NCBI GenBank assembly: GCA_040879175.1
Contig: JBBDKW010000001.1
Span: 1-51,440, forward strand
Direction of reading: 5' to 3'
DNA from: Candidatus Saccharimonadales bacterium
Lineage (GTDB): Bacteria > Patescibacteriota > Saccharimonadia > Saccharimonadales > UBA10212
Length of the DNA stretch: 51,440 bases
Below are positions 6,965 to 23,262 of this stretch, in pieces; positions within the stretch are counted from its first letter, which is position 1; the number at the start of each line of letters is the position of its first letter. The translations under genes and the position numbers were made by a program. Below the pieces are notes generated by a model. It saw only the letters and a program-made list of their open reading frames with translations. It ran no database searches and had not been told where the DNA came from.

Positions 6965-8563
6965 TTAACCGACAACCCTATAGACTTCTTCGATAGTCGT
7001 CAAGCCGGCAAGTGCTTTCAACACACCGTCTTGTTCCATTGTCTGCATACCGTCTCTGATGGCTTGGGCTTCGAGTATTTCAGTCGTTACCTCGTTCGGC
7101 GGCCGGCGCAACAGTTCTTGAACTCTGGGTGTCATTAATAGCTGTTCGCGGATGGGCAGCTGACCGCTGTAGCCAAACGGATTAGAAGCCGAGCTACCGG
7201 CCTTGTAGAGTGTTAGTCCCTCGAGATTGGGCTTTTGTACTTGAGGCGGTAGTTTGTCTATGACAATTTGTAGCTGCTTTTTTAGAGCCTCGTCGGGTTG
7301 GTAAGGCTGCTTAGTGGAATCATCGAGTCGTCTCACCAGTCTCTGGGCCATAACCAGGCGCATAGCGCTGGCAAATAGCGGATTGATGCCAACCATATCA
7401 AGCATTCTGCTTAAGGCTGCGGCCGCGCTGCTGGCGTGGAAGGTGGTTAATACCAAATGGCCGGTCAAAGCGCCTTGAAGCGCCGTTTTAGCGGTGTCTT
7501 TATCGCGGATTTCGCCCACCATCACTACATCGGGGTCGAGCCTAAGCACAGCCCGCAGTTTCTCGGCAAAACTCTCGGTCGCCAGCGAGCCGCGTACAGG
7601 TATTTGTACGACGCCAGGCATATTGTACTCAACCGGATCCTCAAGTGTAATTATCTTGCGTTCCGGCGTGTTAAGCGTGTTGAGAATCGAGTAAAGCGTA
7701 GTAGTTTTACCCGAGCCTGTCGGTCCGACAACGATTACCATTCCCGTCGGCCGCTTGATGATATCTTGTACGGCAGCCATTTCCGGCGGGCTCAAAGAGA
7801 GGTTTTCGAGTTTGAATAGTTCGAGTTTGAGGTTGAAGAGGCGCATCACTATGTCCATACCGTAAACGGTTGGCACGGTCTCGACACGCAAGTTAAGTGT
7901 CACTTCTTCGCCGGTGGCCATCTTATATTGCCGGCTGATGTGCCCCTGCTGGGCGTCTTCGGCGCTGGTCGAGACATTGGCAGCGCTGGCGATGGCGGCG
8001 GTTAAGTGGCCGTATTTTTCGTGGCTAACGTAGGCGATAGGGTGAAGCACGCCGTCAATCCTAAAGCGCACGCGGACATTTTCCCGTTGAGTCTCGAGGT
8101 GGATGTCGCTGGCTTTGAGTTTGTATGCCTGTTGGACGAGGTATGCCAGCATATCGTCCGGGCGAACCTCTTCGAGGGTCTTACTAACTGTACCGATAAT
8201 ATTCTGTTTTTCGGTTTCGGAAAGGGTTATGTCGTGATACTCCACCTGTTTCGGTGGGTCATAAAGCTGCATATATTCGCGGAAGCCGGCGTCCGAAATA
8301 AGCGAGAATTTGGTGATATGGTCGGTGAACCGGGCTTTGAGACGGTTTATCGTCTGTTGCGGCGTAGTAGTGGTTATGCCGAAGTGGATGTTGTGTTCAT
8401 CAGCGGTTAAAGGCACTCCCCGCAAAGCGTAGAGTTCTGGTGCCGTCAGGATGGTTTTATAAAGTTGTTTTTGCAGTTGCGAAGTGTCGATGTAGTTTAA
8501 GCCGAGGACCTGCGCCCGGCGCTGGGTCATTGTTTCTTCGTCTCGGCGCCCACCCTGATTCAT
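6965..8563 (-). CDS. Type IV pilus / T2SS assembly ATPase (PilB/GspE family)
   Basis: ASDIHLE, RFRIDGVL, GPTGSGKTTT, TLEDPVE, LRLDPDVVMVGEIRD, TGHLVLTTFH. Confidence 0.92.
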   Translation of the reverse strand: MNQGGRRDEETMTQRRAQVLGLNYIDTSQLQKQLYKTILTAPELYALRGVPLTADEHNIHFGITTTTPQQTINRLKARFTDHITKFSLISDAGFREYMQLYDPPKQVEYHDITLSETEKQNIIGTVSKTLEEVRPDDMLAYLVQQAYKLKASDIHLETQRENVRVRFRIDGVLHPIAYVSHEKYGHLTAAIASAANVSTSAEDAQQGHISRQYKMATGEEVTLNLRVETVPTVYGMDIVMRLFNLKLELFKLENLSLSPPEMAAVQDIIKRPTGMVIVVGPTGSGKTTTLYSILNTLNTPERKIITLEDPVEYNMPGVVQIPVRGSLATESFAEKLRAVLRLDPDVVMVGEIRDKDTAKTALQGALTGHLVLTTFHASSAAAALSRMLDMVGINPLFASAMRLVMAQRLVRRLDDSTKQPYQPDEALKKQLQIVIDKLPPQVQKPNLEGLTLYKAGSSASNPFGYSGQLPIREQLLMTPRVQELLRRPPNEVTTEILEAQAIRDGMQTMEQDGVLKALAGLTTIEEVYRVVG

Positions 8564-8725
8564 GCCCGGTAGTAGACTTTCGAGTCAGCTCGTCCTTGGC
8601 GAGCAATTATTATTCAACATCGATGCCATCATATCCTTGAAAGGGTTACACTTACAGGCAGTTAACAAGACGAGCTGTATTTTCAAGCTAAAGTTGAATA
8701 ATCTCGAAAGCTCACTACCGGGCAT
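8562..8725. other. Inverted-repeat-bounded structured element (MITE or cis-acting RNA) at the pilB start
   Basis: 23-bp terminal inverted repeat (20/23 matches, outer 12 perfect) plus internal 10-, 9- and 7-bp inverted pairs; lies between TATACT (8736-8741) and the pilB ATG. Confidence 0.75.
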
Positions 8726-8789
8726 ACTTAGAATCAGTATAAAGCATGAACGCTATCTGTGCGAGCGGTGATTGCGCTATAGTGACACC

Positions 8790-9296
8790 GTGAACAAAAG
8801 GCGACTAGTTCTGGTAGTGCATGATGTACGTTCGGCCCATAATGTCGGCTCGATTTTGCGTAGCGCCGACGGCTTTGGTGTGAATTGCGTTTACCTATCC
8901 GGGTACACGCCTTACCCGGCAATGGTTAACGACAAACGCCTGCCGCACATTGCCAAACGGGCGACAGAACAGATTGCCAAGACCGCCTTAGGAGCAGAAA
9001 AGACCTTTAGATGGCGACACCAAGCTGATATTTTTGAGCTCATACCCAAGCTTAAGAAAGAAGGCTACTTATTGGCGGCGCTGGAGCAGACCGGCCGGGC
9101 GTTAAGATTGCCGGAGTTTAAGACCAAGGACGATATTGCATTGATTGTCGGCAGTGAGATTGGAGGTATCAAGCCCGATTTATTAAAAGCAGTAGACATC
9201 CATCTGGCAATCCCGATGCTGGGTGGAAAAGAATCATTTAATGTGTCAATAGCGTCAGCCGTAGCGCTTTACCATTTACGATGGTATAAGTTATAA
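8790..9296 (+). CDS. SpoU/TrmH family RNA methyltransferase
   Basis: VRSAHNVGSILRSAD, GSEIGGI, IPMLGGKESFNVS; GTG start 6 nt after TATAGT. Confidence 0.9.
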   Translation: MNKRRLVLVVHDVRSAHNVGSILRSADGFGVNCVYLSGYTPYPAMVNDKRLPHIAKRATEQIAKTALGAEKTFRWRHQADIFELIPKLKKEGYLLAALEQTGRALRLPEFKTKDDIALIVGSEIGGIKPDLLKAVDIHLAIPMLGGKESFNVSIASAVALYHLRWYKL

Positions 9297-10359: not shown

Positions 10360-13300
10360 TTATTTTACTACTATGTTTGTGGAGCCGAAGATGGCCGCCA
10401 AAGCCCTTAAGCTTTCCTCGTTGACACTGATTGTCTGAGGCAGTTTAATAACCTGTTTCGTTTCAAGATTACCGGTTACGATTACAACCTCGGTATCACC
10501 GCGAAAACTATCAAGCTTGTCTTTTAGGCTCATAAGTAACGGTTGGTCAGAGCTGTTTTCCAGCCTAATAAACAGCCGTTGCTTTAAGCTGCCACTGTTA
10601 CCAAACTCGCCGGTTTTATGGTTGAAGGCCTGCTGTGTTTTACCAATATCTTCTGGGGTCAAAAGCCTAGCTTGATCTACAATGACCTTCCAGTCATCGG
10701 TTTCTGAATCGTTCCGATCTCGCGTAGTCAGACGACCTTTGGCCAAAACGACGTTATCCCGGATCCATAATTCAGGCTGAGTCTCGTATAGTTTTGGAAA
10801 GATTATCAGCTCGATTTCACCGCTTAAATCAACCACCTTGGCGAAGGCCATCTTTGAACCGTTCTTGGTGGTAATTTCGCGAGCAGCGGTTACCGAACCG
10901 CCGACCACTACCTCGCGTCCGTCCATCTCAGCGCTCAGACTGCCGATTTGTTTAGCCTGTTCACTCAGTAATTTTTCATAATCTTCCAGCGGATGGCGGC
11001 TTAAATACAACCCCAGTAGCTCACGCTCCCAAGATAGCTGGATACTCTGTGAATAAGGCACCACTTCTTCGTCCCAGCGCATTTTGAGCGAGGTTGCCGA
11101 GTCATCGCCGCCGCCGCCAAACAAATCGACCTGCCCGCTAATGGTCTCTTTTTGCAACCGCTGGGCCAAACTCAGGATATTTTCGACGTTATTAAGCAGC
11201 CGGCTGCGGTCTCCAAGCGAGTCAAAGGCACCCGATTTAATAAGGCTTTCCAGCGCTTTACGGTTGACAATATGGACGTTAACGCTCTTGCAGAAGTCTT
11301 CGATAGATTTAAACTGTCCGCCCAGTTTCTCGCGTGCTTGGAGGATTTCTTCGACCGCACCTTGGCCGACGTTTTTAATGGCATCAAGCCCAAAACGTAT
11401 TTCATTTTTACTGGGGACGACGGCGAACTCGTGGAAGGACTGGTTGATATCCGGCGGTAGAACCTCAATCCCCATATGCTTGCATTCGGTAATTTCAATT
11501 GCCAAGCGGTCGATATTGTCATAATCACTGGTCATCAGCGCTGCCATAAAGGCCGCCGGATAATGAGCCTTGAGGTAGGCCGTTTGGTAGGCAATCAAGC
11601 CGTAGCAAGCTGAGTGCACTTTGTTAAAGCAATAGGCCGCAAACTCTTCCAGCTGGCGCCAAAAGCGCTCCATCAATTTGCGATCGGCACCGACAGTTTT
11701 AACCGCGCCCTCTATGAAGTCCTTTTTGAGTTTGGCCATAACGATCGGGTTTTTCTTACCAATGGCTTTACGCAACGTGTCGGCCTGGCCGCCGCTAAAA
11801 CCGCACATCTCTTTGGAAATCTGCATCACTTGCTCTTGGTAGACAATCACGCCGTAAGTGTTTTCTAGTGCCGATTTCATCACCGGGTGCAGGTATTCGA
11901 TATTGCGCAGACCGTGTTTGCGGGCAATGAAATCTTCTATCCACTGCATTGGCCCGGGACGGTACAGCGCCACCATGGCAATGATGTCGTCGAAAACCGT
12001 TGGCTTAAGCTGTTTTAAGTAGCGCTTCATACCAGCTGATTCAAGCTGAAAAACGCCGGTCGTCTCGCCCTTCTGCAGCAGTTCAAACGTCTTCTTATCA
12101 TCGAGCGGGATATCAGCTATATCGATGTTTTTGCCATAGACTTTTCTGACAATCCGCAAGGCGTTCTTGATGATAGTCAGGTTCGATAAACCGAGAAAAT
12201 CAATCTTTAAGATGCCGATGTCATTTTCTATTGTCGTGCCTTGGTATTGGGTGGCAACCGCGCCGCTCTGGGCCACTTCAAGCGGCACGAATTTGACAAT
12301 TTCATCCGGCGCAATTACCACGCCGGCGGCATGCACGCCGTGGCTGCGGATGGTACCTTCTAGTCTCATAGCCAAGTCAAAAACCTGGCGCGACTTCTCG
12401 TTCTCGTTGTATTCCCTCTTTAAGTCCGGCACTTGTTGAAGATGTGTTGCCAGCTGGGTGTGCCTGCCCTGCACCGGCTGTGGAATCATTTTAGCTAGCC
12501 TATCAGCCTCGGCATATGGCACCCTCAGCACGCGCGCGACATCACGTACAGAGTTGCGGGCAGCCATCTGGCCAAAAGTCACGATATTGGCTACGCGGTC
12601 ACGGCCGTATTTTTCAATGCAATAGTTTATGACTTCATCGCGCCGATTATCTTGGATGTCGATATCCATATCCGGCATACTGATGCGGTCCGGGTTCAGG
12701 AACCGTTCAAAGAGTAAATCATACCTTAAGGGCTCGATTTCCGTAATACGCAGGCCGTAGGCCATTATCGAGCTGGCGGCACTGCCCCGGCCCGGTCCGA
12801 AAACAATGCCCTGATCTTTACCCCAGTTGATGAAATCAGCCACTATCAAGAAGTAGCCGTTAAAGCCCATATTGTTCACCACTTCCAGCTCGTATTTCGC
12901 CCTCTCGATTACCTCAGCCGTCAGTTGTTTTTTTGCTTCGGTTATAGATAGCTGAGCGGCCTTTGTTCTTGAGATATCGCCGTAGCGCCAGGCTAAGCCC
13001 TGCCAAACTTCTTTTTCCAACAAGCTGTGCTCAGTTTCACCTTTAGGTGTCGGGAACTTAGGAATCAGGATTTTATCAAGCTCGAGCATGATGTTACATC
13101 GTTCGGCGATGTCTTTGGTATTTAATATCAGCTCGGGGTGCTGTTTAGCCCATCTTTTAATAATGTCTTTAGGGTCAGCCACATGCAGCTCGAAATCTTT
13201 AAGGCTCATCCGATCTGAGTCATCCAAGAATGCGCCGGTTTGGATACAAAGCAGGACCTCGTGTGCTTCCTGATCTTCGCGGAGCAAATAGTGTGAATCG

Positions 13301-22251: not shown

Positions 22252-23262
22252 TTATCGTAGCCTCACTGGGTGATATTCTTCCGGTGCAATGCGCAGATAG
22301 TGCTCAATTTCGCGCTCGGTTAGCAAGCCGGCTTGGGCGCCGACCTTCTGGACAACACTCATAGCATTAATCGGCGCCCATAGCAGCGCGCCGGCTATGT
22401 CGGCACCTTTCATAACAGCCGCGACAAAGGTTGATGTAAAAGCATCACCCGCCCCGGTGCGGTCGTATGGCGGTTTGGGGTCGGGGTAAATCGGCATTTT
22501 GTAACGGTTCGTGCCGTCGCTGGCGTAGGCGCCTTTAGGCCCATCACTGATGAGTACGATCTTTGGGCCTAGCTCATGCAGCTTACCCAGTAATTCGTGG
22601 ATATCATCATCGTAGCGTTTGCCGGCCACCTCAGCCGCTTCTTGACGGTTAACCGCTAGTATCTCGCTGCGGGCATATATTTGCCTCAGGCGCTGTACTC
22701 CTGCTTCCAGTTGGAACGTACCCGGTTGAAAGGCCAGTTTAATTTCTGGGTGCTTGTTGAGCCACTTGGCTATATCATCGTGGTATTCAAGGGCGTTTTG
22801 GCTGACCGAGCTAAAGTAAATCCATTGCGGGACGTCAATCTGTCTAAAGCGCGGCCAGTGGTAGTCATATTCTTCGTGTTTGATCAGTATGGTCCGATCG
22901 TCTTTGTACCAAAGAACGTAGTGGTAATTGCTTTTATGCCGTGGATTTATATGTACAAAGCGCCTATCTACTTTGGCTTTATGGAGGGCGTGCAAGATAT
23001 CCCTACCCCAATCATCGTCGCCGATATTCGATACCAAACCCGATTTTAGCCGCAGCTTGGCAAAAGTCACCGCCGCGTTGGATGCATTGCCAACCGCCGG
23101 CACAACGATGGATTGGTCGAAAGGTATTTTTGTAGCGTAAGCCATTGAGATCCTTGGTCCATCGTCAGTCCTTTCAACTTTTGCTTCGTCGTCCAACAGT
23201 TTGATAAATGCATCGGTTACTACATCACCTACACTCAAGACGTCAAGACGTGACTCAGCCAT
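22252..23262 (-). CDS. PfkB family carbohydrate kinase
   Basis: GNASNAAV and DRTGAGDAF signatures. Confidence 0.9.
   Translation of the reverse strand: MAESRLDVLSVGDVVTDAFIKLLDDEAKVERTDDGPRISMAYATKIPFDQSIVVPAVGNASNAAVTFAKLRLKSGLVSNIGDDDWGRDILHALHKAKVDRRFVHINPRHKSNYHYVLWYKDDRTILIKHEEYDYHWPRFRQIDVPQWIYFSSVSQNALEYHDDIAKWLNKHPEIKLAFQPGTFQLEAGVQRLRQIYARSEILAVNRQEAAEVAGKRYDDDIHELLGKLHELGPKIVLISDGPKGAYASDGTNRYKMPIYPDPKPPYDRTGAGDAFTSTFVAAVMKGADIAGALLWAPINAMSVVQKVGAQAGLLTEREIEHYLRIAPEEYHPVRLR

Follow-up and report, generated by a model that had tools for sequence, protein, structure and literature searches.

What is the long inverted repeat that lies on the start codon of a type IV pilus ATPase gene in a Saccharibacteria genome, and how did it come to lie there? 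The locus is part of a 51,440-nt stretch from a Candidatus Saccharimonadales bacterium (GenBank assembly GCA_040879175.1, contig JBBDKW010000001.1; the whole stretch is called the window below). The genome to which the window belongs (G000) comprises 549 kb in 18 contigs and is 81% complete. The repeat occupies the intergenic stretch between a pilB-like gene on the minus strand and a divergent SpoU-type methyltransferase gene on the plus strand (Table 1). Judged by sequence comparison with its other copies and with related genomes, it is most probably a non-autonomous mobile repeat, that is, a miniature inverted-repeat transposable element (MITE) in the descriptive sense of the term, which was inserted on the pilB start codon. 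It is short and non-coding with terminal inverted repeats, it is flanked by a target duplication, and both dispersed copies and empty sites were found. The ends of its family are shared with 307-313-bp units that encode a GIY-YIG nuclease, a protein not known as a transposase.

Insertion marks and fold of the pilB element

The initial annotation of this locus had placed an inverted-repeat element at the pilB start codon. The element is real, while its bounds had to be corrected: because the copies begin with CCCGG and finish with CCGGG when aligned, it extends from 8565 to 8722. A search with both ends yielded 14 copies in G000, eight of 155-162 nt, five of 72-84 nt and one of 313 nt. Full-length matches numbered eight at E <= 9.3e-35, namely the pilB copy and seven others, with shorter ones besides. 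All inverted repeats listed initially are present: 8562-8584 pairs with 8703-8725 at 20 of 23 positions, 8609-8618 with 8693-8702 at 10 of 10 and 8586-8594 with 8669-8677 at 9 of 9, and cttgaaa (8636-8642) and tttcaag (8681-8687) were likewise found. The outermost pair, ctgattc at 8555-8561 and gaatcag at 8731-8737, had been counted as part of the element and turned out to be flanking sequence; other copies lack this extension, and the closest relative, G005, has CTGATTC and no GAATCAG.

Target duplications were counted over 50 elements, three composite rows having been dropped from the list. An exact direct duplication of at least 3 nt abuts both ends in 38 of the 50 elements and is exactly 4 nt long in 25, compared with 7.9% when the flanks of different elements were paired as a control. 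The duplicated words are AT-rich and roughly follow YWWR (CAAG, CTTA, TATG, CATA, TTATA). For the pilB element, the two copies read CATG and CATA and are thus identical at three of four positions. Insertion of one copy into another was seen in a relative (G016), where a 74-nt copy is nested in a 158-type copy (236 = 158 + 74 + 4).

The pilB region is present in all six other genomes of the genus, four of which can be aligned through the insertion site; the first 662 nt of pilB are 79% identical to those of G005. In all four (G005, G004, G001 and G003), pilB carries CATA, the element is absent and the sequence runs on uninterrupted. The bases that follow CATA in G001 (AGGGTTAAGTATAAAGCATGAGCG) align with the right flank of the G000 element (CTTAGAATCAGTATAAAGCATGAACG). 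Therefore, the element and one copy of CATA were gained in the G000 lineage, with the left copy now reading CATG. A second empty-site comparison, at C3:10415, gave no clean result, as the left flank is not conserved in relatives. In assembled contigs from one study with three DNA runs, of which two may be where the window's DNA comes from, the element ends show 13-20x the depth of the flanks and contigs break at the element; the depth is raised because other copies pile up there. The initial suggestion of a MITE with an AT target duplication accordingly holds for the MITE, given copies, duplications and empty sites, and fails for the AT, since the duplicated word is CAT(G/A) and duplications in the family are typically 4 bp long. 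A single copy, no empty sites and no covariation had together been named as what would argue against both a mobile and a regulatory reading. All three came out the other way, and the mobile reading is therefore favoured.

The fold of the pilB element far exceeds chance, as RNA or as DNA and on both strands (z = -6.1 to -8.7). RNA folding of 8555-8741 gave -70.7 kcal/mol for the minus strand and -69.6 kcal/mol for the plus strand (z = -7.5 and -8.7; none of 200 shuffles was as good), and DNA folding of 8565-8722 gave z = -6.4 and -6.1 for the two strands. The 20-nt ends pair at 17 of 20 positions around a fixed 3-nt mismatch and form helix A. Inside, the arms follow the order A-B-C-B'-C'-A', such that B/B' crosses C/C' in a pseudoknot or either-or topology, as had been proposed initially. 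In helix C, the pilB copy has CAAC/GTTG where the majority of copies have CGAC/GTCG.

Paired changes were scored in an alignment of 20 long copies from five genomes, at 36 pairs in four helices (two parts of the end stem, helix A; helix B, columns 22-30/115-123; helix C, columns 49-58/140-150). Paired cells amount to 95.3%, versus 22-40% when the partners are slid by 1-3 columns. Changes on both sides occur at 13 of the 36 pairs, with two to four such pairs in each helix, compared with 4.2 in shuffles, none of which (0 of 500) reached 13. Since paired changes are found in all helices, including the crossing helices B and C, the idea of a pseudoknot or of alternative folds stands. Complementarity of the arms could also be maintained by correction of imperfect palindromes during replication; in contrast to this idea, it is the arm sequences themselves that are conserved, and the loops that are scrambled.

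In relatives, the pilB ATG follows a -10-like box at a distance of 6-9 nt (G004, TATAAT at 6 nt; G003, TATAAT at 7 nt; G001, TATACT at 9 nt). Removing the insertion from the G000 sequence restores TATACT, 10 nt, ATG and then AAT CAG, exactly the layout reconstructed in the initial annotation. In the 313 long open reading frames (ORFs) of G000, spacers between TANNNT and the first ATG peak at 6-9 nt (counts of 32, 26, 27 and 21 versus about 5-15 elsewhere), and many genes of this genome therefore look leaderless or nearly so, as far as spacing can indicate. Before the insertion, pilB was probably leaderless or near-leaderless as well. The -10 boxes named here are readings by eye combined with spacing statistics; a strict sigma-70 scan of 8450-8850 returned no promoter. 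Words resembling Shine-Dalgarno sequences also show a peak in G000, at 5-10 nt.

The element thus inserted into CATA over the pilB start codon and duplicated this word, so that 162 inserted bases now part the pilB ATG from its presumed old promoter and a second ATG is left beside that promoter. According to our model, transcription of pilB would still begin there and the mRNA would carry the element as its leader. The duplicated ATG near the 5' end opens a 46-codon ORF that stops 21 nt before the pilB ATG, and pilB itself would then need either re-initiation or an opened stem to be translated. This upstream ORF in frame with pilB, described initially, is indeed present, and the 162 inserted bases keep the frame. 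ORFs through other copies vary in length and their stop positions are scattered, which means that no peptide is conserved beyond the part coded by the shared end. With upstream ORFs unconserved in other copies, we read the 46-codon ORF as a by-product, one that may matter for pilB translation.

The repeat family and its nuclease-coding units

All members of the family share their 20-nt ends, which are the sole part common to all classes. The common L end reads CCYRGTAGT, AGA, CTTTCNNG and the common R end CNNGAAAG, CTC, ACTACYRGG. The two pair throughout except for the fixed AGA/CTC mismatch, which RNAalifold renders as two pairs and two single-base bulges. Interiors differ by class: the 158-nt class has the pseudoknot-capable fold, the 72-89-nt class two small hairpins and the 307-313-nt class an ORF. 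By BLAST, the family was matched in 10 of 41 related genomes, G000 counted. Within the order, 44 of 401 genomes contain the exact 13-mer of the L end, for which a reversed-pattern control mostly gave 0-1 matches per genome. G016 holds about 26 copies (26 L-core and 22 R-core matches). Distribution across related genomes is patchy. In viral contigs, no paired-end match was found, and none of nine exact 15-mer matches has a second end within 400 nt. End pairs more than 313 nt apart were absent from the genomes scanned for both ends.

In the 307-313-bp members, the strand read from the R end carries an ORF of about 100 aa, and all four that were tested match Pfam GIY-YIG (E = 1e-17 to 2.5e-14). 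G000 itself has one such unit, on contig 15; an ATG abuts one of its ends and the other end directly adjoins the ATG of a long ORF that runs off the contig. In a scan of one genome per species, 125 relatives of the nuclease were found. The eight closest loci are all from Saccharibacteria, and in all eight, family ends flank the ORF on both sides. In the units of nine genomes, a co-directional host ORF always starts with an ATG 0-1 nt from the L end (9/9; hosts of 138 to > 438 aa), and the hosts are at least six different genes as judged from their N-termini by eye. An ATG that abuts the R end is in frame with the nuclease ORF in eight of the nine, and a -10-like box (such as TACAAT, TATAAT or TAGAAT) stands 6-9 nt upstream of it. 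Equally, in eight of nine units the nuclease stop is the TAG inside the terminal CCTAG, and in eight of nine an internal GTG or ATG at codon 9 offers a second candidate start. Between genomes, median pN is 0.25 versus a pS of 0.85, so the nuclease protein is under purifying selection; the ends are nearly invariant in DNA.

Deletion derivatives of the coding unit exist as well and link the classes. One in G276 (L134:1492-1705) is 214 nt long and, of the ORF, keeps the C-terminal two-thirds, enclosed by two L ends; its stem is free of mismatches, and a perfect 35-bp inverted repeat surrounds the truncated nuclease ORF. Another, in G016, is 124 nt long and has ends of the coding-class type by eye.

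These features suggest a possible life cycle. A unit consisting of two 20-nt ends and the nuclease ORF would bring neither a promoter nor a start codon of its own, and the host promoter together with the duplicated ATG would express the nuclease. Its stop would fall in the last bases of the unit, and the host gene would be read again from the second ATG 1-2 nt further on. The nuclease would recognise the folded-back stem in single-stranded DNA and spread all classes of the family, much as RAYT does for REPINs, and the 72-162-nt derivatives would reshape the 5' ends of genes, pilB included. The 307-313-bp units would then be among the smallest self-contained mobile elements, landing on leaderless ATGs and, through a nuclease that also spreads the 72-162-nt derivatives, forming a class that is neither DDE nor HUH. 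We put this full picture forward tentatively, as a proposal that may well prove wrong.

Small GIY-YIG genes with inverted repeats are found far beyond this family. Among 80 such loci from many phyla (L044-L123), 23 have a flanking inverted repeat with a score >= 12, compared with none of 432 displaced controls, and the spans of these 23 are about 280-325 bp. Their end sequences fall into several groups (ACCCCCACACC..., ATCCCRCACC..., CCCGGTAGTAGA...). Plausible 4-bp duplications (TTGA, TATG) are seen at some of the loci, and a host ATG directly adjoins some of them, as in loci of Kaiserbacteria and Paceibacteria whose ends start with CCCGGTAGTAGA or TCAGGTAGTAGA. Tiny nuclease units may thus form a broad class across phyla. 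Two further small GIY-YIG genes of G000 (C3, C7) have no clear flanking inverted repeat.

Several individual copies deserve mention in their own right. Two short copies of G000 (contig 14, 16936-17019, and contig 18, 7192-7273) have mutually reverse-complementary interiors and keep the AGA/CTC orientation, so that the interior is inverted relative to the ends. A copy in G016 (L029:4418-4574) has an L-type end on both sides and a stem without mismatch. On contig 5 of G000 (22616-22692), a 77-nt copy with a CATA duplication lies on the ATG of a gene and leaves the frame open; with 77 + 4 = 81 nt, the promoter-side ATG would therefore add 27 residues to the host protein. In copies including L027:2978-3064, L034:1534-1621 and L016:1501-1582, TATA or TTATA is duplicated and the flank contains TATAAT with an ATG 6-7 nt on, so these copies adjoin a -10 box on its upstream side and leave it intact. 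Regarding the direction of the repeat, gene starts are faced by 22 L ends and 17 R ends over the 50 elements. An orientation rule relative to the neighbouring gene, for which seven of the eight long G000 copies, lying the same way by eye, had spoken, is ruled out by these numbers. Further, about 75 nt on contig 3 of G000 at ~10736-10812 (L002:1824-1900) match several sites in G000 and relatives at 80-91% and probably belong to a tRNA gene family.

On the other side of the element, the SpoU gene has TATAGT at 8778-8783, 6 nt upstream of its GTG. The equivalent in G001 is TATAGT, 6 nt and ATG.

Table 1. Features of the pilB locus (window coordinates) and the nuclease-coding unit of the same genome
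Feature	Position	Strand	Details
pilB-like type II/IV secretion ATPase gene	6965..8563	-	532 aa, intact; Pfam T2SSE E = 3.1e-91, profile positions 12-370 of 370
Left target duplication copy, CATG	8561..8564		Contains the pilB start codon (ATG, minus strand, 8563-8561); from sequence; relatives have CATA here and no element
Element, 158-bp non-coding member of the long class, L end to R end on +	8565..8722	+	nhmmer with 8-copy profile, E = 2.1e-39; ends set by copy alignment
L end, helix A 5' arm	8565..8584	+	CCCGGTAGT, AGA, CTTTCGAG; AGA (8574-8576) is the conserved mismatch
46-codon upstream ORF through the element from the duplicated ATG	8585..8725	-	TGA stop 21 nt before pilB ATG
Helix B 5' arm	8586..8594	+	CAGCTCGTC; pairs with 8669-8677 and crosses helix C; both-side changes in 4/9 pairs; picked unaided by RNAalifold
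Local hairpin of arm B and following bases, then T-rich run	8588..8604	+	Terminator-like in L-to-R direction only; competes with helix B; some copies only
Helix C 5' arm	8609..8618	+	ATTATTCAAC; pairs with 8693-8702; both-side changes in 3/10 pairs
Helix B 3' arm	8669..8677	+	GACGAGCTG
Helix C 3' arm	8693..8702	+	GTTGAATAAT
R end, helix A 3' arm	8703..8722	+	CTCGAAAG, CTC, ACTACCGGG; CTC (8711-8713) lies opposite AGA
Right target duplication copy, CATA	8723..8726		Minus strand TATG, start of the 46-codon upstream ORF; from sequence and relatives
TATACT, presumed pilB -10 box	8736..8741	-	Now ~172 nt from pilB ATG; from sequence, boxes of relatives and genome-wide spacing
SpoU-type methyltransferase gene, divergent, outside the element	8790..9296	+	Start GTG 8790; Pfam SpoU_methylase E = 2.9e-28
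Nuclease-coding unit of G000	contig 15, 1317-1629 (L043:1317-1629)		313 bp; family ends; 104-aa GIY-YIG ORF on minus strand

What moves the repeats

That the GIY-YIG nuclease is the mobilising enzyme of the repeat family is, on our analysis, a roughly even call, and a number of points weigh against it or against mobility as such. The coding unit is single-copy where present and occurs in 6 of the 41 genomes of the family. Together with saturation of synonymous sites between genomes, this makes the unit look old and stable and not actively jumping. Identity among the G000 copies is just 67-76%, which gives no sign of recent activity. Two genomes that are 97-99% complete, G266 with 11 end-motif matches and G012 with 3, have no close GIY-YIG unit, so the nuclease is not always present beside the repeats. 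GIY-YIG enzymes are hydrolytic nucleases, we know of no joining activity for them, and how such a nuclease would give rise to the 3-5-bp duplication is unexplained. Single-sided changes in the helices comprise G.T in 11 cells and A.C in 15; they thus show no strand preference, and a fold of RNA and one of single-stranded DNA are not distinguished. No joint skipping the whole element was found in the contigs of the three DNA runs, which cannot show rare alleles. Finally, the transposase search covered three DDE Pfam families and Y1_Tnp, and G000 is 81% complete.

DDE cut-and-paste elements are marked by terminal inverted repeats together with a 3-5-bp target duplication, and the family shows both, with AT-rich target words of about YWWR. 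The repeats could hence be ordinary MITEs moved in trans by a DDE transposase whose own copy is missing from the assemblies or has diverged ends, the GIY-YIG ORF being a trapped passenger. Insertion sequences often fail to assemble in metagenome-assembled genomes, G000 is itself incomplete, and the many repeats of G266 occur without a GIY-YIG unit. We consider this explanation unlikely. PF01609 (DDE_Tnp_1), PF00665 (rve) and PF13701 (DDE_Tnp_1_4) were found in none of five genomes, among them G016 (97% complete, 2 contigs, about 26 copies), whereas 9, 6 and 4 of 14 control genomes were matched. In the genomes scanned for both ends, no end pair is spaced wider than the nuclease units. Further, the ORF fits the ends exactly in nine genomes, with a frame open from the abutting ATG and its TAG stop in the terminal CCTAG, and the distant small GIY-YIG genes have inverted repeats of their own (23/80 versus 0/432 controls). 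A Y1 transposase of the RAYT or IS200 type that serves REP/REPIN-like repeats would fit the long fold-back structure and the high copy number. ORFs of about 210 aa matching Y1_Tnp (PF01797; IS200/RAYT-like) are present in G016 (one), G266 (four) and G012 (two), the latter two being the genomes that have repeats without a GIY-YIG unit. Yet none was found in G000, with its 14 copies, or in G010. Single-strand transposition by Y1 enzymes leaves no target duplication, nor do REPINs, while a duplication accompanies 38 of the 50 copies here, and we assign this explanation only a very slight probability.

The position of the element between the presumed promoter and the pilB ATG, with the ATG at the foot of a very stable stem, might also speak for a structured or co-opted cis-regulatory RNA that controls pilB translation via the pseudoknot or alternative folds. 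Paired changes occur in helix B as well as in helix C, which cannot be nested at once, and pilB has stayed intact despite the insertion. However, the same element is found at 13 other places in G000 beside unrelated genes, for which reason a regulatory RNA specific to pilB, as proposed in the initial annotation, is unsupported. In addition, the element occurs in both orientations (22 L and 17 R ends of 50 facing a gene start), four genomes of the same genus have pilB and no element, no Rfam family was matched and wobble pairs show no strand preference. The element probably has a side effect on pilB expression but is unlikely to be a dedicated regulator, and we regard this reading as a whole as very improbable. 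The chances are smaller still for an invertible or excisable pilus switch or for a free-standing small RNA gene such as 6S, both of which had been raised initially. For the switch speak the long inverted arms and the reverse-complementary interiors of C14:16936 and C18:7192, which indicate that interiors can flip on an evolutionary time scale. Against it, nothing recombinase-like was seen among the adjacent genes examined (pilB and the SpoU methylase), and the listed joints in contigs of the three runs, where rare forms are invisible, include neither an excision joint nor an inverted form. A 6S-like RNA is unsupported because no Rfam match was obtained at the thresholds used: for 8300-9000 with E up to 10, only ilvH appeared (E = 2.1, far below its gathering score), and for 14 further copy loci with E up to 0.1, five tRNAs and one sub-threshold match overlapping a tRNA were returned, none of them on a copy. 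The lack of a sigma-70 promoter in the strict scan of 8450-8850 likewise speaks against these readings.

Relation to known systems and significance

Correia elements, MITEs of Neisseria, are 70-160 bp long, have terminal inverted repeats and a short target duplication, lie in intergenic regions near promoters and affect neighbouring genes. The family described here is likewise small, terminally repeated, target-duplicating and located near promoters. It differs from classical MITEs in that no DDE-type parent was found in the three DDE families searched, that its ends are shared with a nuclease gene of about 310 bp, and that its 158-nt class keeps a pseudoknot-capable interior. REPINs and RAYTs (Bertels and Rainey 2011, PMC3116915; Nunvar et al. 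2010, PMC2817692) consist of a single-copy enzyme gene flanked by the repeat and of many non-autonomous fold-back copies. The same arrangement and a long persistence in lineages are seen here, with a GIY-YIG nuclease in place of the Y1 HUH transposase. Among solved structures, the best matches to the nuclease were UPF0213 BH0048 (1zg2), EF2693 (1ywl) and SLX1 (7wme), all weak (E = 1e-4 to 3e-3); BH0048 and EF2693 are about 100 aa long like the nuclease, whereas the SLX1 chain has 183 aa.

The closest parallel is Ssn. According to the main text of Chenal et al. (2025, Nat Commun, PMC11893778), Ssn proteins are 94-aa single-domain GIY-YIG enzymes of Neisseria (CDD cd10448) that cut single-stranded DNA beside a hairpin repeat (NTS/SRM), which flanks the ssn gene itself and occurs in hundreds of copies elsewhere. 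The authors already remark on the layout resembling an insertion sequence and on the parallel with RAYT and REP, and the text leaves open how the repeats multiply. As far as that text describes Ssn, both systems pair a small single-domain GIY-YIG protein, of 94 aa in Neisseria and about 100 aa in the present family, with a structured, multi-copy, nearly always intergenic repeat that borders its gene on either side, and in both a fixed asymmetry gives the repeat a direction. Flanking by a multi-copy repeat was found for nine of nine coding units. Further, P0001, a nuclease of the present family, is 40% identical (E = 4e-17) to a small GIY-YIG ORF of Bacteroidales, a homologue of the nuclease, whose upstream flank matches the NTS consensus given in the main text of PMC11893778 at 25 of 28 positions. 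The SRM pattern as published there has one match in G000, versus a mean of 2.75 in 20 shuffles, and none within 30 nt of the 14 copies. Compared with that description, the flanks here are the two arms of one long stem instead of two self-contained hairpins of 20-50 nt, and 3-5-bp duplications, empty sites, nesting and a coding unit on host start codons come in addition. The main text of the Ssn paper contains neither 'target site' nor 'MITE', and mentions neither Patescibacteria nor Saccharibacteria. From its sequence features, we therefore classify the family as an Ssn-type nuclease-plus-repeat system that appears MITE-like in behaviour and lies outside the SRM repeat family. Among the titles and abstract beginnings searched, none describes a bacterial GIY-YIG element that combines terminal repeats and target duplications, and no account of miniature inverted repeats in Saccharibacteria came up; GIY-YIG passages in papers on Patescibacteria had no bearing on the repeat family.

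In conclusion, Saccharibacteria have tiny genomes and are thought to be poor in mobile elements, and here we find 14 copies of one repeat family in 0.55 Mb. The family occupies promoters and start codons, among them the start codon of the type IV pilus ATPase gene. For genome annotation, such copies produce false N-terminal extensions and false upstream ORFs. The family further supplies insertion marks that the main text on Ssn does not report, namely target duplications, empty sites, nesting and deletion derivatives, through which the question of how Ssn-type repeats multiply becomes testable. A nuclease gene without promoter and ATG that is expressed from leaderless host genes would, if true, represent a new expression route for a mobile element, and Ssn-type nucleases would, if the proposal holds, be the engine of a new class of bacterial transposable elements.

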